Source: Candidatus Falkowbacteria bacterium RIFCSPLOWO2_12_FULL_45_13 (GTDB lineage Bacteria; Patescibacteriota; Patescibacteriia; Patescibacteriales; GWC2-42-12). From it: a DNA stretch of 64,000 bases. Both the position numbers and the translations under genes were made by a program. Location: contig MFFY01000061.1 of NCBI GenBank assembly GCA_001778055.1, positions 515-64,514 on the forward strand. The letters are read 5' to 3'. Below, piece after piece: positions 1,815-63,040 of this stretch (position 1 is the stretch's first letter; every line of letters begins with the position of its first letter). The notes under the pieces were generated by a model. The model worked only from the letters and a program-made list of their open reading frames with translations, was not told where the DNA came from and did not search any database.

Positions 1815-2350
1815 AATAAACTACCTCGCAGCAAGCTGACGAGGTATTAACCCTCGAAAAGTCTTGGCTGATTGGTATGAATTTGTTCGTACTTTAAACC
1901 TTAATTTTGAACATACTGCTTGATAGCCTCTTCGCTTGCTGCTTTACCAACCGTGTTAATGTAATAACCTTTCGTCCAAAATTCACCGCCCCAAAGCAAT
2001 TTTCTGATTTCCGGCTTTACGCGAAATATTTCCCGAGCCGTGATGCTTTTGACTATTTTCGCCAAATTGGTGGGGCTGATCATCGGAACAGACTGAATTA
2101 GAAAATGAACATGGTTTTGGTCAACGCCGATTTCAACAAAATGTATGTCAAACCTTTTTTCAATCTCCAAACAAATCTTCTTAATCTCTTGGTCTGCACC
2201 GGCCACATCCCTAAATACATTTCTGCGATATTTGGCCGGACAAACCAAATGATATAGTAGCAACGACGAATTATGTGATTTTTTTATGTGTTCGGACATG
2301 TTTTCATTCTAACGTACCCGCCCCTCGAGGCAAGCCTCGGGGAAATCTAT
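1815..2350 (-). mobile_element. IS200/IS605-family insertion sequence (tnpA only) with subterminal hairpins
   Basis: A Y1/HUH transposase ORF is flanked by imperfect hairpins: tacctcg...cgaggta at ~1823-1846 and cccctcgagg...cctcgggg at ~2321-2342. This is typical of IS200-like ends. The element abuts the recJ start. Confidence 0.6.
1901..2299 (-). CDS. tnpA: IS200/IS605 family transposase TnpA (Y1 HUH)
   Basis: 132 aa. HUH motif HVHFLIQ, conserved YxxK-type C-terminal region, and a size typical of IS200 TnpA. Confidence 0.85.
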   Translation of the reverse strand: MSEHIKKSHNSSLLLYHLVCPAKYRRNVFRDVAGADQEIKKICLEIEKRFDIHFVEIGVDQNHVHFLIQSVPMISPTNLAKIVKSITAREIFRVKPEIRKLLWGGEFWTKGYYINTVGKAASEEAIKQYVQN

Positions 2351-8453: not shown

Positions 8454-10049
8454 CTAAATTAGACTCCGGCCCGTCATCTCGGCCGACTTTTCCAAATTCA
8501 TCAGTTTCAAAATTGTCGGCGCCACATCGGATAATATGCCTTGCGGCTGAACCAGGCTCAAATCTCCGCCGGGCGCGTCTCCTAAAGACAGGCTCTTGCC
8601 TTCATAGTCTTGGCCAACAATTATGAACGGCACGGGGTTGGCCGAATGCTCTTTGTCTATCTGGCCGGTTTGCATATTAAACAAAACCTCGGCGTTGCCG
8701 TGATCGGCGGTAATAAATATCAAACCGGATTTGCTTAAGACAGATTTAACAATTCTGCCCAGGCACTTATCAACCGTTTCAACGGCTTTAGCCGTGGCTT
8801 TTAAATTACCGGTATGGCCGACCATATCGGCGTTGGCGTAATTAACCAAAATAAAGTCATAACTGTCTTGTTCAACCGCCTCAACAACTTTGTCGGTTAT
8901 TTTAACGGCCGACATCTCGGGTTGTTCGTCATAACTGGAAACCGCCGGTGATTGAATTAACACATGGTCTTCGTCGATAGACTTGCTTTCTCGGCCGCCG
9001 TTAAAAAAATAAGTCACATGAGCGTATTTTTCGGTTTCCGCGATCCTTAACTGTTTCAGGCCGGCTTTAGCTAAAATTTCACCGAAAGTATGCCTGATAA
9101 TTTCCTTGGGAAAAACCGTTTCCATGGGTAAACTAATTTCATATTCGGAAAAGCCAGCAAAAAATATTTTCAAGTATTTTTCCCGCTTAAATTTTTCAAA
9201 ACCGGGCAAGACAAAAGCCTTAGCCAGCTGGCGCGCCCGGTCCGGCCGGTAATTAAAAAATATTACCACGTCGCCGTCTTCAATCATGGCCACAGGTTTA
9301 TTATTTTTAACAATTACCGTGGGCATAAACTCTTCGTCGTAAATCTTCTTTTTATAGCTGGCTTCAACCGCTTTCCCGGCCGACTCGTGTTTCTCGCCCA
9401 GGCCTTGCGTTATGGCTTGATACGACTTAGCCGTTCTACCCCAATGATTATCGCGGTCCATGGCATAAAATCGGCCGTGGACCGTGGCAATTTTGCCGAC
9501 AGTCCCTTTAAGAGATCTTTCGATTTCTTGAATAAAATTAATTCCGGAATTGAACGGCGTGTCCCGGCCGTCTAAAATCGCGTGAATATAAAAATTTTTC
9601 ACCTTCTTCTCTTTGGCCATTTCAATCAAGGCTTGAAGATGCTCCAGCGAAGAATGAACCGCTCCGGAGGAAACCAAACCGATAAAATGCAACTTTGAAT
9701 TATGATTTTCCGCCTGTTCAATGGCCTTTAACAAAACTTTATTCTTGTAAAAACTGCGGTCGGCGATCATTTTGTTGATTCTGGGCAAGCTCTGATATAA
9801 AATCCTCCCCAGCCCTAAATTAAGATGGCCGACTTCGCTATTGCCCGATTCGCCCCAAGGCAAGCCCACGCCCTCGCCCGAAGCCACTAATGTGGCGGAC
9901 GGGTACTTGGTTATATAGTTATTGATATTCGGGGTATTGGCCTGGCTAATGGCGTTGCCGGAATAAGGAGTGGTAATGCCCCAGCCATCCAAGACGATCA
10001 GCACGACTGGTTTTGGGCGTAAATTTTGTTCTTTATTTACCATAGACAT
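8454..10049 (-). CDS. gpmI: 2,3-bisphosphoglycerate-independent phosphoglycerate mutase (iPGM), paralog 1
   Basis: 531 aa. VVLIVLDGWG, GNSEVGHLNLGLGR and ADMVGHTG motifs place it in the alkaline-phosphatase superfamily iPGM group. Confidence 0.9.
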   Translation of the reverse strand: MSMVNKEQNLRPKPVVLIVLDGWGITTPYSGNAISQANTPNINNYITKYPSATLVASGEGVGLPWGESGNSEVGHLNLGLGRILYQSLPRINKMIADRSFYKNKVLLKAIEQAENHNSKLHFIGLVSSGAVHSSLEHLQALIEMAKEKKVKNFYIHAILDGRDTPFNSGINFIQEIERSLKGTVGKIATVHGRFYAMDRDNHWGRTAKSYQAITQGLGEKHESAGKAVEASYKKKIYDEEFMPTVIVKNNKPVAMIEDGDVVIFFNYRPDRARQLAKAFVLPGFEKFKREKYLKIFFAGFSEYEISLPMETVFPKEIIRHTFGEILAKAGLKQLRIAETEKYAHVTYFFNGGRESKSIDEDHVLIQSPAVSSYDEQPEMSAVKITDKVVEAVEQDSYDFILVNYANADMVGHTGNLKATAKAVETVDKCLGRIVKSVLSKSGLIFITADHGNAEVLFNMQTGQIDKEHSANPVPFIIVGQDYEGKSLSLGDAPGGDLSLVQPQGILSDVAPTILKLMNLEKSAEMTGRSLI

Positions 10050-10073
10050 TAATTTTAAATTTAAAATTTTTGA

Positions 10074-11714
10074 TTATTTTATTAGATTCTTGCCCGTCAT
10101 TTCTTTGGGTTTTTTAATATTTAACAACTCCAGTATGGTCGGCGCGATATCGCCTAAAACTCCGCCATTTCTTAATTTGACTTTATGGCCAAGGTTTTTG
10201 TTGATTAATACAAAGGGTACCAGATTAGTTGAATGCTCGGTATTGATTTCACCGGTTTTTAAATTAATCATCTCCTCGATATTGCCATGATCAGCCGTCG
10301 CTAAAACTGTGCCGCCGACGTTCAAATAAGCCTTAACAATTTCGCCCAGACACTTATCAACCCCATGGCAGCATTTTATCGCGGCGTCCAGATTGCCCGT
10401 GTGGCCGACCATGTCGGGCGCGGCAAAATTCAAAACCGTAAAGTCATATTTCCAGTCTAAACCCTTTTTCTGGCCAATATAACCCCCCTGCTCCCCTTTC
10501 AAAAGGGGGTGAGGGGGGGTTAAATTGTTGACCACTGCCTCGGTCAACTCCGCCGAACTCATCGTCGGCGTCTGATCATACGATCTGACGTTGGGCGAAG
10601 GCACAAGGCGCCGCCCTTCCCTCGCGATCGGATCGGCATAGCCGCCGTTAAAAAAATAAGTCACATGAGCGTATTTTTCCGATTCGGCGATATATAATTG
10701 CGACAAACCTTTTAGCGCCTGCGGCAAAGTCTGTTTTAAATCGACGCTGGGATAAGCGGTTAAAATACCGTCTAAGTCCGGTCCAAAATCAGTCATGGCC
10801 ACGAACAACAAATTTTTTAATACTTTTTTTCTTAAAAAAGAACCGGGATTTAATCTATCAAAATCTTTTTGCACGAAAACCTTGGCGAATTGCCTGGCCC
10901 GATCCGATCTTAAATTAAAAAAGATAACGCCGTCGCCGTTGCCGATCCGGGGTAAGGGCCGGCCATTTCTGGTGATCACATAGGGCTCAATAAATTCGTC
11001 GCTTTCGCCGCGGTTATAACTTTCCATGATCGCGGCTTCCGGGCTGGCGGCTTTCCGGCCCAAGCCGCTCGTTAAAGCATCATAAGCTTTTTCGGTTCTC
11101 GACCAGGTTTTTTTTCTGTCCATGGCGTAATATCGGCCGACGACGGAAGCGATGGCTTCGCCGTTTTTAAAAACTTTTTGGATATCTTCGACCAATTTCA
11201 AAGAGGCATACCTAGGCGAATCCCGGCCGTCGGTGAATAAATGCAAATAAACTTCCTTGACTTTAGTTATTTTAACCAAAGACAGCAGAGCCAGCAAATG
11301 GTCCGGGTCGCTATGCGCGCTCATGCCATTGGAGATCATGCCCATTAGATGAAGCTTGGATTTATTCTTTTTGACCTGGCGGATCGCCTCGATAAAACCG
11401 GCATTTTTAAAAAAAGTCCCGTTATTAACGCTTTTAGAAATTTTAACTACGTCTTGCTCGACAATTCTGCCGGCGCCAATATTCATATGCCCGGCTTCAG
11501 AATTACCCGATTGGCTCGGCGGCAGGCCCACGGCCTTGCCGGAAGCATTGATTAAAGTATTGGGAAATTTTTTAATCAAGCCGTCCATAACCGCGGTATT
11601 GGCCAAGGTGATGGCATTACCCTGGCTCGGTTCAGCCATGCCCCAGCCGTCTAGGATGACCAGAATCATGGGTAAAACATTTTTAGCTGGCTTATTTAAC
11701 TTTTCTGGTTTCAT
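10074..11714 (-). CDS. gpmI: 2,3-bisphosphoglycerate-independent phosphoglycerate mutase (iPGM), paralog 2 (tandem duplicate, carries an in-frame palindromic insertion)
   Basis: 546 aa. ILVILDGWG, GNSEAGHMNIGAGR and PDMVGHTG motifs. The segment NNLTPPHPLLKGEQGGYIGQKKGLDWK has no counterpart in paralog 1 and is encoded by the palindromic element at 10483-10520. Confidence 0.9.
   Translation of the reverse strand: MKPEKLNKPAKNVLPMILVILDGWGMAEPSQGNAITLANTAVMDGLIKKFPNTLINASGKAVGLPPSQSGNSEAGHMNIGAGRIVEQDVVKISKSVNNGTFFKNAGFIEAIRQVKKNKSKLHLMGMISNGMSAHSDPDHLLALLSLVKITKVKEVYLHLFTDGRDSPRYASLKLVEDIQKVFKNGEAIASVVGRYYAMDRKKTWSRTEKAYDALTSGLGRKAASPEAAIMESYNRGESDEFIEPYVITRNGRPLPRIGNGDGVIFFNLRSDRARQFAKVFVQKDFDRLNPGSFLRKKVLKNLLFVAMTDFGPDLDGILTAYPSVDLKQTLPQALKGLSQLYIAESEKYAHVTYFFNGGYADPIAREGRRLVPSPNVRSYDQTPTMSSAELTEAVVNNLTPPHPLLKGEQGGYIGQKKGLDWKYDFTVLNFAAPDMVGHTGNLDAAIKCCHGVDKCLGEIVKAYLNVGGTVLATADHGNIEEMINLKTGEINTEHSTNLVPFVLINKNLGHKVKLRNGGVLGDIAPTILELLNIKKPKEMTGKNLIK
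10483..10520. repeat. In-frame palindromic element (C5-TGACAAGG-AGGG family) inside the gpmI paralog 2 coding sequence
   Basis: cccccctgctcccctttcaaaagggggtgagggggggt is a near-palindrome. Related copies occur in eno, gap and rarA and at two intergenic sites. Confidence 0.7.
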
Positions 11715-11934: not shown

Positions 11935-13251
11935 TCATTTTAATTTTTGATTTTTGCATTTTAAATTTTCTTCAATCTCCATCAGCCTGTTATATTTCGC
12001 CAGCCTTTCTCCCCGCGACAGCGACCCGGCCTTAATGTAATCAGCCCCGACCGCCACGGCTAAATCAGCGATAAAGTCATCCGTAGTTTCGCCCGAGCGA
12101 TGCGAAACAATAATTTTATAATTATGCTTCTTGGCCAGTTTTACGCAGTCAACCGTTTCCGACAGGGTCCCGACCTGATTGGGTTTTATTAAAATAGCGT
12201 TAGCGGCGTTTTCTTTCAAGCCTCGCCTCAAGCGCTCCGGATTGGTGACGAACAAATCATCGCCGACCAGCATTACGTCCCGGCCAAGCTCTTTATTTAA
12301 TTTTTGCCAGCCGGCCCAATCGTCTTCAGCTAAACCGTCTTCAAGGTAAATTATCGGATACTTCCTAAACCATTCGTAATATAAGCCGGCTAAAGTAGCC
12401 GCGGTGTAACTGGCGCGATCCAGCTTAAAAACATACCTGCCGTTTCTCTGATTATAAAGTTGAGATGAGCCTACATCAATGCCTAAGGCTAAATCTGCCC
12501 CGGGTTTATAACCAGCTTTAATTGCGGCCGCCATAATTAATTCAATCGCCTGGATGCTGGAACTGATATCCGGCGCGTAGCCGCCTTCATTGCCCACATC
12601 CGTGTCATAGCCAGCTCTTTTTAAAACATCCCCTAAAGCATGAAAAATCTCCGCGCCCATTCTAACTTGTTCGGCAAAACTTCTTCTCCCCCCCCTGACA
12701 AGGAGGGCTGGGGGTGTTAAATAAGCCAGGGGAATTATCATAAATTCCTGAAAATCCAGGTTGGTATCGGCGTGCTTGCCGCCGTTAAAAATATTAAAAC
12801 ATGGAACAGGTAATTGGAAATTGGAAATTGGAAATTGGAAATTATTAGAGATATATTCATATAACTCCAGACCAGAAGCCAAGGCGCCGGCGCGGGCGCA
12901 AGCGAGCGACACGGGCAGGATCGCATTAGCGCCTAATTTACTTTTATTTTTTGTACCATCTAATTTTATCATGATATCATCAATCTCCGCCTGCTTGGTT
13001 ACTCCAGCTCCGATTAGCTTAGGCGCGATTTTGCTTTCAATATTTTTAATGGCATGCAAAACCCCCAAACCGCCGTATCTTTTAGCATCATTGTCCCGCA
13101 GTTCCACGGCTTCATGCGCGCCCGTAGACGCGCCCGCAGGCGCGCTGGCTTTTGCTTTAACGCCATTATCCAATAAAACCGTGGCTTCCACAGTGGGATT
13201 GCCGCGCGAATCTAAAATCTCACGAGTCGTTATTTTTTTTATTTTAGGCAT
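11935..13251 (-). CDS. eno: Enolase (phosphopyruvate hydratase)
   Basis: 438 aa. TTREILDSRGNPTVEA, SAPAGASTGAHEAVELRD, SHRSGETTD and the full enolase domain order. It also contains an in-frame 12-aa insertion and a 7-bp tandem repeat. Confidence 0.95.
   Translation of the reverse strand: MPKIKKITTREILDSRGNPTVEATVLLDNGVKAKASAPAGASTGAHEAVELRDNDAKRYGGLGVLHAIKNIESKIAPKLIGAGVTKQAEIDDIMIKLDGTKNKSKLGANAILPVSLACARAGALASGLELYEYISNNFQFPISNFQLPVPCFNIFNGGKHADTNLDFQEFMIIPLAYLTPPALLVRGGRRSFAEQVRMGAEIFHALGDVLKRAGYDTDVGNEGGYAPDISSSIQAIELIMAAAIKAGYKPGADLALGIDVGSSQLYNQRNGRYVFKLDRASYTAATLAGLYYEWFRKYPIIYLEDGLAEDDWAGWQKLNKELGRDVMLVGDDLFVTNPERLRRGLKENAANAILIKPNQVGTLSETVDCVKLAKKHNYKIIVSHRSGETTDDFIADLAVAVGADYIKAGSLSRGERLAKYNRLMEIEENLKCKNQKLK
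12686..12716. repeat. In-frame palindromic element (same family as 10483-10520) inside eno
   Basis: ctcccccccctgacaaggagggctgggggtg. It encodes the extra YLTPPALLVRGGRR relative to the canonical EFMIQPVGAKT...IRMG loop of enolase. Confidence 0.7.
12808..12844. repeat. Coding microsatellite: about 4.5 copies of a 7-bp unit (GGAAATT / AATTGGA) inside eno
   Basis: ggtaattggaaattggaaattggaaattggaaatta. It encodes NNFQFPISNFQ in the variable loop preceding the conserved LPVP. Confidence 0.85.
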
Positions 13252-18463: not shown

Positions 18464-18629
18464 ATAGAATAATTTAATAGTACTTACGCGCTCTCCAATA
18501 TTATCTAAAGTTAATAAAAATTGTTAATTTATGCCAACCAACTGTAATTACCCGCAAATCTACAAATCAGCTACGAATACTACCAATGCTATTCGTGATA
18601 TTCGTAGCTGATTTGTAGATTTGCGGGAG

Positions 18630-21123: not shown

Positions 21124-22396
21124 GATTAACCTTAAAGTATTTTCTCCCCCTTAACTTCCCCGGCAGATAGTCCTGCTTTTCTTTATAATCATAATCCGGG
21201 CTGTATTTATAGTCTTGGCCGTAGCCCAGCTCCTTCATCAGCTTGGTGGGCGCGTTCCTGATAGACAAAGGTACCGGCAAATTGCCATATTCATGAACAT
21301 CAGCCGCGGCTTGTTTATAGGCTATGTATAAATCATTAGACTTTTCGCACTTGGCCATATAAACCACGGCCTGGGCTAAAATAACATTGCCTTCCGGCAG
21401 GCCGATAAAATGGCAGGCCTGATAGGCGGCCACGGCCTGCTCCAGGGCGCGCGAATTGGCCAAGCCGATATCCTCCGAGGCAAAGCGCACCAGCCGGCGG
21501 GCGATATAGAGCGGATCTTCGCCCGCCTCGGTCATGCGCGCCAGCCAATACAAGGCCGCGTCCGCGTCAGACCCGCGCATGGCCTTATGCAGAGCGGAAA
21601 TTATATTATAGTGCTCATCTCCGTCCTTATCGTATAACAAATGAGACTTTTGAAAAGCTTCTTTAATAATCTCGGCTGTTATTTCTTTACTCCCCTCTCC
21701 TTGAGTTACACCCTCTCCTTTAGAAGGAGAGGGTTGGGGTGAGGTGGCCGCGTACTCCAAAACATTCAGCGCCGCGCGCGCGTCGCCGTTGGACAGGCGC
21801 GCCAATAAATTTATGGCGGCCGCGTCTATTTTAATTTTAAATACGCCCAGTCCCCTGGCCTTGTCTGCCAACGCTCTTTTAATAATTTCTCCTATCTGCG
21901 TTTCGTCTAATTGCTTTAAAACAAACACGCGGCAGCGCGACAACAAAGCTCCGCGCACTTCAAAGCTGGGGTTTTCCGTGGTGGCGCCAATCAGAATAAT
22001 GACGCCGCGCTCCACCTGCGGCAACAGCGCGTCCTGCTGGGCTTTATTCCAACGGTGGATTTCATCAATGAATAAAATGGTTTTTTTGCCCTCAATGCTG
22101 TTTTCTTTGGCTTTTTTTATAATCAGCCTCAAATCCTTCAAACCGCTGGTAACGGCGCTAATGCGTAAAAATTCCGACTTGGTTTGCCTGGCGATGATAT
22201 GGGCCAAGGTGGTTTTGCCGCTACCCGGCGGGCCCCAAAAAATCATGGAGGGCAACTGGTCACCGGTTATGGCCTGCCTTAATAATTTTCCCGACCCGAC
22301 GATTTCATCCTGTCCTAAAAAATCTGCCAGCGTCTCTGGCCGCAGCCGATCGGCTAGGGGTGAAGTATTTAGTATATTTGGAGCCGTTGTTTCCAT
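21101..22396 (-). CDS. rarA: Replication-associated recombination protein A (RarA/MgsA AAA+ ATPase)
   Basis: 431 aa. Walker A FWGPPGSGKTTLA, Walker B ILFIDEIHRWNKAQQDALL, and the C-terminal RarA helical domain (ISALHKAMRGSDADAALYW). Confidence 0.9.
   Translation of the reverse strand: METTAPNILNTSPLADRLRPETLADFLGQDEIVGSGKLLRQAITGDQLPSMIFWGPPGSGKTTLAHIIARQTKSEFLRISAVTSGLKDLRLIIKKAKENSIEGKKTILFIDEIHRWNKAQQDALLPQVERGVIILIGATTENPSFEVRGALLSRCRVFVLKQLDETQIGEIIKRALADKARGLGVFKIKIDAAAINLLARLSNGDARAALNVLEYAATSPQPSPSKGEGVTQGEGSKEITAEIIKEAFQKSHLLYDKDGDEHYNIISALHKAMRGSDADAALYWLARMTEAGEDPLYIARRLVRFASEDIGLANSRALEQAVAAYQACHFIGLPEGNVILAQAVVYMAKCEKSNDLYIAYKQAAADVHEYGNLPVPLSIRNAPTKLMKELGYGQDYKYSPDYDYKEKQDYLPGKLRGRKYFKVNHGQADKK
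21690..21748. repeat. Palindromic element (C-rich / GGAGAGGG family) inside rarA
   Basis: ctcccctctccttgagttacaccctctcctttagaaggagagggttggggtgagg. It encodes SPQPSPSKGEGVTQGEGSK in the RarA linker. Confidence 0.6.
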
Positions 22397-30906: not shown

Positions 30907-32034
30907 TTACAACAACTTCTTTTTTCCAATATACTCGCATAAATCCGCCAATCGGCAGGAATAGCCCCACTCGTTATCATACCAAGCGATTATTTTCAAA
31001 AGATCGCCGTCAATAACCTTGGTTAAAGGCAAATCAACGATGGCGCTGTTTGCGTTGCCGATAAAATCGGAAGAAACCAGCGGTTCTTCCGTTACCGCCA
31101 CGTAACCTTTATAATCGCCGGCCGCGGCTTTTTTTATCGCTTGATTAACCGCCTCGGCGGTAACCGATTTTTCCGTAAGATACACGATATCGCACAAGGA
31201 CACCACCGGCGTGGGCAGGCGCAAGGCCAGGCCATCAAATTTTCCGGCCAGCTCCGGAATAGTTTTAGCCGTGGCTTTGGCCGCGCCGGTCGTGGTCGGC
31301 ACGATATTTAGGCCGGCCGCGCGAGCTCGGCGCAAATCCTTATGCGGCCCGTCCACTAAATTTTGACCAGCCGTATAAGAATGCGCGGTAGACATAATGG
31401 CCTTTTTAACGCCGAAATTGTCTCTAACTATTTTCGTTACCGGAGCCAAACAATTGGTGGTGCAGGAAGCCATGGAAATAATTTTGTCATCTTTAGTTAA
31501 ATCTTTTTCATTAACCGACAAAACAATAGTTTTAATAGCCTCTCCCCCTGACAAGAGGGAGCTGGAGGGGGTTTTTTCTTTAGCGGGCTTGCCCGCCGTA
31601 GCTTTTTTATCCGCCAAAGCCTTGGCGTCGGCGGAAGCGGAGGCGGGCGCCGACAAAATCACTTTTGTAGCACCGGCTTCAAGATGCTGTCCGGCGCCAA
31701 GCGCGTCCAGAAATCTGCCGGTGCATTCCAAAACAATATCCACCTTCAGTTTACCCCAGGGCAATCTGGCCGGCTCTTTTTCCTTGAGCACCCGATATTT
31801 TTTACCGCCAACCATCAAATTATCGGCTTCTGCCGCAACTTTTTTTTCATAAGTTCCATAACAGCTATCGTGCTGTAAGAGATGCGCCAGCGTCTTGGTG
31901 TCCGTCAAATCATTTATTGCCGCCACATTTATCCCCTTTTTATTTAACAAGGCTTTAAAAGCGGCCCGGCCGATCCGGCCGAAGCCATTGATGGCGATGT
32001 TCACCCCGTTAGATATTGGCATATATTTTTTCAT
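30907..32034 (-). CDS. gap: Glyceraldehyde-3-phosphate dehydrogenase (type I) with an internal insertion of about 30 aa
   Basis: 375 aa. INGFGRIGR, active site ASCTTNCLAPV, WYDNEWGYS. The Ala/Lys-rich insertion ...ASADAKALADKKATAGKPAKEKTPSSSLLSGGEAI is encoded partly by the palindrome at 31541-31572. Confidence 0.95.
   Translation of the reverse strand: MKKYMPISNGVNIAINGFGRIGRAAFKALLNKKGINVAAINDLTDTKTLAHLLQHDSCYGTYEKKVAAEADNLMVGGKKYRVLKEKEPARLPWGKLKVDIVLECTGRFLDALGAGQHLEAGATKVILSAPASASADAKALADKKATAGKPAKEKTPSSSLLSGGEAIKTIVLSVNEKDLTKDDKIISMASCTTNCLAPVTKIVRDNFGVKKAIMSTAHSYTAGQNLVDGPHKDLRRARAAGLNIVPTTTGAAKATAKTIPELAGKFDGLALRLPTPVVSLCDIVYLTEKSVTAEAVNQAIKKAAAGDYKGYVAVTEEPLVSSDFIGNANSAIVDLPLTKVIDGDLLKIIAWYDNEWGYSCRLADLCEYIGKKKLL
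31541..31572. repeat. In-frame palindromic element (C5-TGACAAG-AGGG family) inside gap
   Basis: tctccccctgacaagagggagctggagggggt. Nearly identical core to the eno copy. Confidence 0.7.
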
Positions 32035-40030: not shown

Positions 40031-40183
40031 AAATTTAATGCGAATCCGCGAATAAATGCGAATGCTGCGAATATTATTAGCGGCATTCGCATACTAAATT
40101 CGCGACACTAGCATTATATTGTAAATATTTTTATAAAATTAAATTAATCTTAGCTAAAATTATTAACCGAGCAAGCCTGTACT

Positions 40184-41479: not shown

Positions 41480-42445
41480 TTATTTTTCTTGTCCTATACC
41501 ACCTTCATACTTAATGTAAATATCATCTCTCATGATATCAATCTCCGGAATTATTTCAAATTTGTCAACCCGGCCGATATTCCCCGGCCAGCTTAAGGAA
41601 ATGGGCCTTTCCTCCCCTGACATAAAATCATTCAAAGTATAATAGTTAATGTTGGCCAGATTATCGCCGTTATAAAGCAAGATAGAAAAACCCGCCTCCC
41701 AATAATTAAAAGCCGTATGATTAATTACCTTAAAATCCAGCCGATTTAAATTTAATTTTTCAGACAACTGGCTGGCGTTCGGCGGCGTAAAATTAATCTC
41801 CGCGCTTTCAATGTCTAAATGGCTCCTATAATAGGCATTCCAATCTGGAAATTTATGCCGGTCAATCCTCTGCCATTGGATATTTTCTATGACCAGGCTG
41901 GCGGCGGCCGGCTCGACGGTAAAGTCTCGGGCTAAAGCCATAAGATACTTAGCCTCCATGGGCAGTATAAAGCCGCTGGCATTCGGCAACGCCTGCCCGT
42001 CGGCCATAAAATAATAATCAAACTTCGCCCACCATTTCGGATTAAAATTTCTTAATTGGACGTAAAAATCATATTTCTTATCGGCTGACTTTAGTATGCC
42101 AACCGGAGTCACGGCTAACGGCTTGGCGCCGACCTGCAAAACATAGTCATGGCCAAGGCTGCCGGCTTCAACTAATTGTTTAACCAGCAGCCGATCTTCG
42201 TCCAGACCGCGGACCAGATAATCGGCGAAACCATAAATAGAGTAAGCCAGGGAAACCGCGCCGACCAAAATCAATAAGCCATTTAAAATGTTTCTTAAAA
42301 ACTGTTTATGCTCAACATACCAGAGGCCGGCCTCCAACTGTTTGGTGGTCAGGCCTTCGGGCCCGGCATAATTTTTCACTCTGGCTTCTATAATTTGATC
42401 TTTGGCTGGGCTGTTCTCTTGATTAAGTTGTTGGCTGTTTTCCAT
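41480..42445 (-). CDS. Hypothetical membrane-anchored protein
   Basis: 321 aa. Single N-terminal TM (ILNGLLILVGAVSLAYSIYGF), large extracytoplasmic domain, no known motifs. Confidence 0.5.
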   Translation of the reverse strand: MENSQQLNQENSPAKDQIIEARVKNYAGPEGLTTKQLEAGLWYVEHKQFLRNILNGLLILVGAVSLAYSIYGFADYLVRGLDEDRLLVKQLVEAGSLGHDYVLQVGAKPLAVTPVGILKSADKKYDFYVQLRNFNPKWWAKFDYYFMADGQALPNASGFILPMEAKYLMALARDFTVEPAAASLVIENIQWQRIDRHKFPDWNAYYRSHLDIESAEINFTPPNASQLSEKLNLNRLDFKVINHTAFNYWEAGFSILLYNGDNLANINYYTLNDFMSGEERPISLSWPGNIGRVDKFEIIPEIDIMRDDIYIKYEGGIGQEK

Positions 42446-42737
42446 GCTATTATTTTAACATAATTTGCCCCCTTGATAAAGGGGGCCGGGGGCAAAAATA
42501 CGAGCGCCCAGGCAACCCCTTGAATAACTGTTGAGATTTAACCTCCACATGTAGGTTAAATCTCTTATTTTTTTCACCCATCTCCCTTGCCGTTTCCGCT
42601 TTTTTTTGCTAAAATTTAAGTATAAAAATGAGCTAATTTAGATGTTTTTATTTTAAAATATTTAGGCTAAAATTAAATAAAAAAATACACAAATTATACA
42701 CGCCAATCAATTCGTCGTATTCGCACATAATTTGTAG

Positions 42738-61846: not shown

Positions 61847-62944
61847 TTAATTTTGAAACTTGAGATGATTAAAATTATCTTCCTGCCCTTCATTCACCAT
61901 TGCTTTTTTCCCGTTTTCGCGGCTGTTAAAAATATCCTTAATAAAAATAGCCGCCACCGTGGTGACGGGTATGGAAAGAATGGCGCCGACGACCCCGGCC
62001 AGCTTAAAGCCGGCCAGCATGGCTAAAATGCTGATAATCGGATTTAAGCCCACGGCCTTTTCCATGATTTTCGGGTAGAGAAAATTACCCTCAATAAACT
62101 GTATTATATAAAATAAAATAATCACAAAAATGGCTAAGAGCGGCGTTTGCGTGAAAGCGATAAACACCGCCGGCAATGAGCCTAAAATTGCCCCCATGTA
62201 GGGTATAAAAGAAAACAGGCCGACTAAAATCGCCAATAGCAAGGCGTAATTAACGTCTAAAATTAACAGTCCGATGTAGGTCATGATGGTTAAGGCCAAA
62301 CCCAATATCAGCTGGCCGCGGAGCCAATAGCCCATTTTTATTTGCGCGCGGCGGACTAATTGCATGATATAGGGCTGATGCCTGGCCGGCGCGATTGACC
62401 AGACTAGTTTTTTCAGGCAGTTTTCCTCCACCGCCAGATAAAAAGTCAAAACCAAAATCAAAATAAAAGAAAAAATTCCGCCGAAAATATTGGTGACCGT
62501 GAAAAAAATTCCTGAAGCCGTGCTGGAGAGATAGCTGGAAAGCAGATCCAATGACCCTTGAAATTTATCATAGACGCCGTATTTTGACGAATAATCTCTT
62601 AAATCGCTGAATTTTGAATAAATAGATTCAAAGTAGCGCGGGAAATTGTTTGACAAGTCGTTAATTTCTTTTATAATTATCGGGATAATCAGATACAAAA
62701 CCAGCCCCAGAACGGCCAAGATAACCAGATATAAAAATAATACGCTGACCGACCGCGGAATCTTCTTTTTCTTCAGCCAGTCCACCCAAGGGTCCAGGCC
62801 GCTGGCGATCACCAGGGCCACAAAAAAAAGTATCAAGATGTCGCTGACTAAAGACAGAAAATAAAACAAAATAAAAATCGCGATAACTTTAAAAATCGCG
62901 GCGCTAGAAATATTAATACTGATGGGCCGTTGATTAAGTTCCAT
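61847..62944 (-). CDS. AI-2E family transporter (UPF0118/PerM-like)
   Basis: 365 aa, 8-TM topology. Characteristic N-terminal IFKVIAIFILFYFL...FFVALVIASGLDPWVDWL and C-terminal Gly-rich TM segments. Confidence 0.8.
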   Translation of the reverse strand: MELNQRPISINISSAAIFKVIAIFILFYFLSLVSDILILFFVALVIASGLDPWVDWLKKKKIPRSVSVLFLYLVILAVLGLVLYLIIPIIIKEINDLSNNFPRYFESIYSKFSDLRDYSSKYGVYDKFQGSLDLLSSYLSSTASGIFFTVTNIFGGIFSFILILVLTFYLAVEENCLKKLVWSIAPARHQPYIMQLVRRAQIKMGYWLRGQLILGLALTIMTYIGLLILDVNYALLLAILVGLFSFIPYMGAILGSLPAVFIAFTQTPLLAIFVIILFYIIQFIEGNFLYPKIMEKAVGLNPIISILAMLAGFKLAGVVGAILSIPVTTVAAIFIKDIFNSRENGKKAMVNEGQEDNFNHLKFQN

Positions 62945-63040
62945 ATGTTTTTATTTTACCATATTTTACCCCCTTGATAAAGGGGCAAACCCTGGCCTTA
63001 ATCAAGCGCCAGGGCTAGAGCCGTCAGAGCCAACCAATCA

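Follow-up and report, generated by a model that had tools for sequence, protein, structure and literature searches.

Candidate palindromic repeats inserted in frame in core enzyme genes of a Falkowbacteria contig, and their possible connection with DUF559 genes

Why do the genes for four conserved enzymes contain short C-rich and G-rich palindromes that are translated with the rest of the protein? The question arises from a 64-kb stretch of DNA, referred to here as the window, from Candidatus Falkowbacteria bacterium RIFCSPLOWO2_12_FULL_45_13 (GenBank assembly GCA_001778055.1, contig MFFY01000061.1, positions 515 to 64,514 of the forward strand). A first-pass annotation made from the letters had marked six elements in it, four within genes and two between genes, and had likened them to the palindromic elements of Rickettsia. 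Reading the sequence confirms all six, and the peptides PLLKGEQGG, ALLVRGGRR, SLLSGGEAI, and PSPSKGEG attributed to the intragenic elements are each translated in frame. We conclude, with a probability of roughly 0.8, that the six sequences are intact or decayed copies of a superfamily of tiny palindromic dispersed repeats that inserted as DNA. The elements and their host genes all lie on the minus strand; coordinates are those of the whole 64-kb window. The six putative copies are as follows.

10461..10527, minus strand: in-frame copy in iPGM paralogue 2 (gpmI2); the 60-nt insert, 10461-10520, encodes residues 399-418, TPPHPLLKGEQGGYIGQKKG, and holds a 53-nt imperfect full palindrome, TTTAA-C7-TCA-C5-TTTTGAAA-G4-AGCA-G6-TTATA
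12679..12729, minus strand: decayed in-frame copy in enolase (eno), residues 175-191, LAYLTPPALLVRGGRRS, net gain 12 residues; layout C5-AG-CCCT-CCTTGTC-AGGG-G5
21695..21742, minus strand: in-frame copy of a second type in rarA; 48-nt insert, residues 219-234, SPQPSPSKGEGVTQGE; layout CTCACCCC-AA-CCCTCTCCTT-CTA-AAGGAGAGGG, then a partial second G-arm
31537..31575, minus strand: in-frame copy in GAPDH (gap), residues 154-166, KTPSSSLLSGGEA
42452..42494, minus strand: intergenic copy 1, C5-GG-C5-TTTATCAA-G5, then TATGTTAAAAT
62953..62986, minus strand: intergenic copy 2, CCCC-TTTATCAA-GGGGG-TAAAAT, then TATGGTAAAAT

Inserts in four enzyme genes

Pfam identifies the host open reading frames (ORFs) as iPGM (the second of two paralogues), enolase, GAPDH, and RarA/MgsA. 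All four remain intact with full-length Pfam matches, and the inserts are in frame. The enolase has 100% identity with a protein whose name refers to Falkowbacteria RIFCSPLOWO2_02_FULL_45. Six independent metagenome assemblies contain the same loci, elements included, at 99.3-99.9% identity, which excludes an assembly artefact. The segments had been said to lack any counterpart in the adjacent paralogue or in canonical homologues, and alignment bears this out: gpmI2 is longer by 20 residues than the adjacent paralogue and 9 of 15 orthologues, enolase by 12 than about 80 of 120 close homologues, GAPDH by 35 than a baseline of about 334 residues, and RarA by exactly 16 than the orthologues of L130 and L144 (75% identity). 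The comparison with related genomes that the first-pass annotation had proposed shows the inserts to be lineage-specific. Close orthologues are without the segments or have another subtype in that position.

The gpmI2 copy is the only full palindrome in the window, the other five being singlets. In its inverted repeat (I9) the two arms, each 25 nt long, match as complements at 80%, and the DNA folds with −15.3 kcal/mol (z = −4.2 against composition-matched shuffles); the insert extends beyond the palindrome proper. At this site the window carries a repeat of the type we call C5, three relatives (L130, L134, L135) carry a CTCACCC type, and the segment is missing from L009, L133, and other orthologues. 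A strain allele (L004) lacks exactly the 60 nt. The region concerned is L004 12710-13262, the counterpart of about 10043-10542 of the window: the assembly matches the window with 99.6% identity up to about 10542, and from there the 3′ half of its gpmI2 diverges (about 75%); this drop within the gene is evidence of recent recombination, the incoming allele being free of the insert. Against the solved Geobacillus enzyme (PDB 1EJJ) the alignment is interrupted, with query residues 398-421 opposite chain residues 387-390.

Enolase was surveyed in 120 homologues of 68-100% identity, which reveal two insertion hot spots. About 30 of the 120 have inserts at the loop before P(T)PCFN (hot spot 1) and about 35 after EFMIIP (hot spot 2). 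The window's insert is at hot spot 2, immediately after the conserved EFMIIP strand, where most of the 120 have five residues. The fillings include PPNPPLLKG, PSNSPLSGG, SPQPPLSRG, PTPNPSPARSSRERG, tandem and inverted doublets, and unrelated inserts of the NTRIATN type. The closest relative (P0002/L009, 81% identity) shows the opposite of the window, with an insert at the first site and none at the second. Hot spot 1, a C5-element site in relatives, is exactly where the window enolase has a perfect heptamer array, AATTGGA x4.6 (12812-12843), read as NNFQFPISNFQ; other homologues have GAGTTAY-type heptamers there (LRVASYEL).

GAPDH has a single such hot spot, after VILSAPA, filled in 25 of 120 homologues (for example KETPHPNPLLSKER and KETIPPTPFIKG). 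The gap copy is the distal part of a 35-residue composite insert (31537-31641), which thus exceeds the palindrome in length. It is identical at 30 of 32 nt to an intact copy with an 8-bp stem within the enolase gene of another genome (L132), and a motif search that allowed mismatches only had overlooked it owing to indels. The proximal part of the insert (31579-31641) contains further short palindromes, namely GCGGGCAAGCCCGC, whose translation is ATAGKPA, and GCCAAGGCTTTGGC. Inserts of the SAKATAGKP type are found in the GAPDH homologues P0127, P0130, P0185, P0198, P0214, and P0224, a recurrence that probably marks a third in-frame repeat family.

The mapping onto structures proposed in the first-pass annotation was carried out on AlphaFold 2 models for enolase and GAPDH, where the inserts fall in low-confidence loops, and for iPGM on 1EJJ, which has no insert. 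The predicted local distance difference test score is below 50 at enolase residues 179-188 and GAPDH residues 135-164, in both cases between well-predicted elements. This is what floppy surface loops would be expected to show.

Family anatomy and distribution

Codon usage, the reading of one unit in two frames, the occurrence of copies elsewhere, both within other genes and between genes, and the variable hot spots lead us to read the four intragenic segments as copies of DNA repeats, not conserved protein loops. Within the elements, CCC accounts for six of nine Pro codons and CCG for none, while CCG makes up 51% in window genes (Fisher p = 0.010); GGG accounts for 6 of 12 Gly codons, against a preference for GGC (61%) in window genes (p = 0.0013). 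The enolase of L007 contains one DNA unit read in two frames, as PPNPLYQGGK and IPLTPFSKGGK. The hairpin CCCCCTTTATCAAGGGGG, which is the sequence of the window's intergenic copies, is also translated in frame, as PLYQGG, in L007 and L136 enolase. The 17-mer CCCCCTTGATAAAGGGG occurs exactly in both intergenic copies and has five matches in the window at up to three mismatches, against 0.33 expected. For five of the six copies, the best non-self Smith-Waterman match in the window, on either strand, is another of these copies; that of the eno copy is the gap copy. Searches with the tags found no copies in the window beyond the six.

The elements had been described as one palindrome family. The family is real and composite, comprising at least two sequence types plus decayed copies: the C5 type (gpmI2 and the two promoter-proximal copies), the decayed eno/gap subtype, and the CTCACCCC/CCCTCTCC type of rarA. 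The canonical C5 unit consists of (A)AT-C5, a linker of 2-3 nt (TAA, TCA, or CAA), and a C5/6-TT..AA-G5/6 hairpin, followed by TAAA in copies from the candidate phyla radiation (CPR). Across the superfamily, a unit of 27-60 nt combines a C-rich tag that stays unpaired (ATCCCCC or CTCACCCC), a linker of 2-3 nt (TAA, TCA, AA, or AG), and a hairpin made up of pyrimidines alone in its 5′ arm and of purines alone in its 3′ arm. The layout C5-AG/TCCAG-CYCCCT-CTTGTC-AGGGGG is common to the eno and gap copies.

An nhmmer profile of the C5 type was built from an anchored alignment of 139 copies, (A)ATC-C5-YMA-C5/6-TT..AA-G5/6 with a conserved 5′ flank. Its best match in 628 kb of control DNA has E = 18, and canonical copies are absent from the controls. 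The gpmI2 copy matches this cross-phylum profile with E = 1.2e-4. The intergenic copies are borderline (E = 0.024 for copy 1 and 0.13 for copy 2), and the eno, gap, and rarA copies are linked to the family by pairwise similarity. The rarA copy has an 11-bp stem (fold z = −3.3 against shuffles) and goes undetected by the C5 profile; it is identical at 31 of 36 positions to copies within gpmI2 of L130 and L134, and at 29 of 34 nt to a repeat adjoining a DUF559 gene of Escherichia coli, including a 19-nt run, CCTCACCCCAACCCTCTCC.

Both intergenic copies form the canonical hairpin (fold z about −2). They had been placed about 20 bp upstream of two start codons, and the distances are 22 nt to the ATG of the ORF at 41480-42445 (copy 1) and 24 nt to that of an AI-2E transporter gene at 61847-62944 (copy 2). 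A common 41-nt block, identical at 36 positions, includes an extended −10 box. In both, 16 nt separate the loop TTATCA from a TG-extended TAAAAT box, which ends 7-8 nt before the ATG. By sequence, we regard the two as hairpin-plus-promoter units, in which near-leaderless promoters may have recruited the hairpin as their −35 region.

The elements are not peculiar to small-genome bacteria: a scan of one genome per species with the pattern CCCCCYMACCCCC-N0-1-TT-N2-6-AAGGGGG yields at least 120 loci with the canonical motif, and the matches listed come from more than 15 phyla. These matches are from Cyanobacteriota (many), Nitrospirota, Nitrospinota, Delta-, Beta-, and Gammaproteobacteria, Bacteroidota, Omnitrophota, Desantisbacteria, Chloroflexota, Poribacteria, Planctomycetota, Patescibacteria, and other phyla; the 5′ flank ATC is conserved across them, and many are at contig ends. 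The cyanobacterial unit is usually an inverted doublet, GATC-C5-TAA-hairpin ... hairpin-TTA-G5-GATC, and the Nitrospirota unit is a full palindrome like that of gpmI2. Doublets are frequent in other phyla as well, and the L008 enolase has one in frame. A literature search found no description of such in-frame palindromic elements in CPR/Patescibacteria, and a scan of the window and nine element-bearing loci at Rfam gathering thresholds returned tRNAs only, with no family covering the elements.

Other repeats were seen in passing. A second, unrelated palindromic family is built on ACGAAT/ATTCGT words (18551-18627, 2380-2480, and 40056-40092), one member having 37-nt arms that are 92% complementary; enolase homologues have in-frame inserts of this type, NTRIATNPACGGTNGHEL and NGARIKTNERES, at the same hot spot. 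A further repeat has two copies at 2620-2760 (cattgcgaggagc...gacgaagcaatctc and its partner), upstream of an IS200 gene, and similar words occur in the N-terminal extension of the enolase homologue P0023 (LRGALATKQSL...EIASLP).

DUF559 genes beside the repeats

When the ORFs beside the 120 motif loci listed are clustered, a small DUF559 gene (PF04480, Vsr-like) emerges directly between repeat units. Among loci picked by the motif, this adjacency is found in three phyla, represented by Omnitrophota, Cyclobacteriaceae, and cyanobacterial genomes. The reverse test started from one DUF559 protein, searched with tblastn against a plasmid collection; 12 loci were taken from the 23 records returned, some of which are mislabelled chromosomes. 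The 12 are from Pseudanabaena (two), Picosynechococcus, Synechocystis (two), Sinorhizobium, Photobacterium, Neisseria, Azospirillum, Sphingomonas, E. coli, and Methylobacterium. Within 250 nt of the DUF559 gene, in 6.7 kb altogether, they contain 24 pyrimidine/purine hairpins against 0.05 expected. By the strict definition 11 of the 12 loci have a hairpin, and all 12 do when 5-bp stems are allowed. DUF559 genes are bracketed in the same manner in L068, L073, L169, L223, a Peribacteria contig (L026), and a Gracilibacteria contig (L222), as in every DUF559 locus examined.

In E. coli three repeat copies follow the DUF559 gene, presumably ycjD, as the record is unannotated. An inverted copy next to the rarA-like one, used as a query, matches at a median of 18 and a maximum of 31 places per genome across all 5,426 complete E. 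coli genomes.

Three of the loci merit separate description. On a Pseudanabaena galeata plasmid (L214, NZ_CP112876.1, 152516-153934) the DUF559 module, with doublets on both sides, lies within an annotated coding sequence of 1,621 residues, either as an in-frame insertion of the whole cassette or through annotation read-through. On a Sphingomonas plasmid (L219, NZ_CP155753.1, 112589-112999) the DUF559 gene and its flanking CCCCTCCCC hairpins are located between sufB and sufC, which looks like an insertion into an operon. The Peribacteria-like DUF559 ORF of L026 (2104-2430, minus strand) has an in-frame TGA. A database protein (P0241, 124 residues, 98% identical to the L026 query) reads through this position with Gly, which suggests an alternative genetic code in the L026 contig.

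The link between DUF559 and the repeats is an association, from which we infer a mechanism. Vsr-like nucleases are known as homing endonucleases (PMC3424549, Table 1), and a literature search found no paper connecting DUF559 with palindromic repeats. A functional partnership between the two is possible, with the odds slightly against it. In its widest form, this would be a pan-bacterial system in which DUF559 endonuclease genes are the autonomous partners of tag-plus-hairpin repeats, including BoxC-like repeats and the cyanobacterial C5 doublets, and in which the Patescibacteria copies are orphans that have settled in loop hot spots of core enzymes and shape the sequences of these proteins; we put this forward tentatively, as somewhat less probable than its negation. 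The relationship may resemble that of repetitive extragenic palindromes (REPs) and RAYT transposases, built on another enzyme fold.

Explanations and known systems compared

The data show the repeat character of the elements, their in-frame insertion, their restriction to particular lineages, the loop hot spots, and the distribution across phyla; how the elements spread is inferred. We propose that copies spread as DNA to new sites, and that those surviving within genes would be the ones that have a length divisible by three, are free of stops, and fall in tolerant surface loops. Since C-runs encode Pro and G-runs Gly, an insert would be read as a flexible Pro...Gly loop, which iPGM, enolase, GAPDH, and RarA would tolerate. 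The hairpin would decay with time, the eno and gap copies being putative examples, and intergenic copies would be open to co-option, as the loop TTATCA at the −35 position of two promoters may illustrate. Our best guess at the means of spread is mobilization or targeting by the DUF559 endonuclease, analogous to REPs and their RAYT transposase; it rests on the small gene that inverted units bracket in many phyla.

Several observations weigh against this account. A near-palindrome had been claimed for each of the four ORFs; the gpmI2 and rarA copies do fold, and for the eno and gap copies shuffles of the same composition fold equally well (z about 0), so that the membership of these two rests on sequence similarity, not structure. 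The canonical C5 profile does not detect them either. Near-identical strains show no presence/absence polymorphism, the sites being filled in all six assemblies. The sole insert-free strain allele of gpmI2 is a recombinant at 76% identity, which leaves the junctions ambiguous, and the TAAAT...TAAAT direct flanks of some CPR copies are only suggestive of target duplication. The enrichment that speaks for the account is biased by the choice of loci through enolase: in 262 kb of related CPR loci there are 16 perfect pyrimidine/purine hairpins with stems of 6 bp or more, 14 of them inside long ORFs, against 5 in 628 kb of unrelated enolase loci. The background hairpin density comes from other genomes. 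As for DUF559, tblastn (E < 1e-4) finds no such gene in the window or in related Falkowbacteria-like loci, and the window copies would therefore be orphans; a search for homologues returned Peribacteria- and Gracilibacteria-like proteins and proteins from Bacteroidota, none named Falkowbacteria. The arrangement of tags around the gene differs by locus (inward, outward, or doublets). We know of no transposition chemistry for DUF559.

The alternative that survives best, though we consider it unlikely, is that a conventional transposon gave rise to the elements as non-autonomous derivatives, whether of the IS200/IS605 Y1 or RAYT type (REP, REPIN, or PATE) or of DDE enzymes (miniature inverted-repeat transposable elements, MITEs). 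DUF559 would then often lie nearby and no more, perhaps as cargo or as a homing endonuclease directed at the repeats. Hairpins with an unpaired guide or tag are the substrates of Y1 enzymes, REPIN-like inverted doublets exist among the repeats, and the window itself encodes an IS200/IS605-type TnpA (1901-2299, minus strand, 132 residues) with a GC hairpin, CCCCTCGAGGCAAGCCTCGGGG, just upstream (2321-2342). That hairpin, however, is unrelated to the family. TnpA, the sole Y1 gene product of the window, matches NF033573 with 122.8 bits and the RAYT model with 21.6 bits, far below the cutoff of 80. An identity with RAYT-associated REPs was considered and rejected, the window gene being of IS200 type and the RAYT REP of Nostoc punctiforme a different sequence. 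The tags also lack GTAG and CGTC, and the cluster beside the listed motif loci is of DUF559, not Y1, genes.

Less probable still are functional regulatory motifs, such as promoter modules, terminators, mRNA stabilizers, or pause sites, kept by selection. Both intergenic copies have identical spacing to a TG-extended −10 box with TTATCA at −35, and one of them matches a scan for terminator-like stems. Against this, the related hairpins mostly lie within ORFs at unrelated positions, the intragenic copies decay, presence is patchy among close relatives, and no Rfam family covers the elements.

It is very improbable that the hairpins arose locally and repeatedly by template switching or quasi-palindrome correction, with no mobile element. 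Hot spots in slippage-prone repetitive DNA such as the AATTGGA array would fit such an origin, and neither a target duplication nor a transposase has been demonstrated. However, unrelated loci match at 30 of 32 and 31 of 36 nt, unpaired tag and linker included, and a motif of 26-28 nt with its ATC flank recurs in more than 15 phyla among the matches listed. Least credible of all, and largely refuted, is the idea of ancient, selected Pro/Gly protein loops whose palindromy is a by-product of Pro = CCN and Gly = GGN: PP...GG in CCC/GGG codons is self-complementary by its very nature, folding in the eno and gap copies does not exceed that of shuffles, and the same loops are filled in many homologues, but orthologues at 72-81% identity are empty or carry another subtype at the same site, the element codons avoid the preferred CCG and GGC, one unit is read in two frames, and identical DNA is found between genes and in unrelated genes and genomes.

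If the six sequences are repeats inserted as DNA, the protein oddities of CPR/Patescibacteria, including unexplained insertions in conserved enzymes, would stem in part from selfish DNA, not adaptation. This matters for annotation, alignment-based phylogeny, and structure prediction in these organisms, and the inserts provide a naturally made list of the loops in enolase, GAPDH, and iPGM that tolerate insertions. Should the DUF559 link hold as well, it would assign a function to a widespread but uncharacterized domain, to which E. coli YcjD and the solved Neisseria protein NGO0050 belong, explain an orphan E. coli repeat family, and tie a new enzyme class to miniature palindromic repeats. It would be directly testable in E. 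coli.

Among known systems, the resemblance to Rickettsia palindromic elements (RPEs) raised in the first-pass annotation holds in part. Like RPEs, the elements are dispersed palindromes in frame within intact conserved genes, with short peptides apparently tolerated in loops. They differ in their C-run/G-run composition, their spread over many phyla instead of one genus, and a unit length of 27-60 nt, far below RPE-1, which is roughly 100-150 bp. RPE-1, RPE-4, and RPE-6 are intragenic, and RPE-4 and RPE-6 have a CGTC tag (Di Nocera 2013, PMC3733652). Direct reading finds neither CGTC nor GTAG at either end of the six copies, and RPEs are thus set apart by tag, size, and description.

With REPs and REPINs the repeats share a short hairpin plus unpaired tag and, in other genomes, copies bracketing a small gene of nuclease type; inverted doublets, frequent in REPs, are common among the repeats of other phyla, whereas the window has one full palindrome and five singlets. 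Opitutus, Thauera, and Rickettsia have REPs that lie within genes (PMC3733652). The tags here are ATCCCCC-YMA or CTCACCCC-AA, in contrast to GTAG/CGTC in REPs; the bracketed gene is DUF559, a Vsr-like PD-(D/E)XK protein, whereas in RAYT systems it is a Y1 HUH transposase; and copies in the CPR loci studied are mostly intragenic (14 of 16), while REPs are extragenic. MITEs, at 70-300 bp and with terminal inverted repeats and a target-site duplication, are far longer than these units, and near-identical strains offer no filled/empty pair.

The E. coli repeat that resembles the rarA copy (29 of 34) is probably BoxC, to judge by its copy number and the presumed consensus. BoxC is GC-rich, extragenic and, as described, of unknown function. 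We know of no link between BoxC and DUF559 or in-frame insertion. The number of places per genome given above fits the published 22-32 copies of BoxC, which measure 50-56 bp (PMC2267715). Cyanobacteria are rich in the C5 motif and enolase hot spot 1 holds a heptamer array, features that recall, by description alone, another class of repeats. These are the small dispersed repeats (SDRs) of Nostoc, which Elhai et al. reportedly described in 2008 and which are said to be hairpin-forming mobile repeats of 21-27 nt, some of them in heptamer arrays and genes. In behaviour the elements of the window are analogous to both RPEs and REPs, and by their sequence features they appear to belong to neither family.

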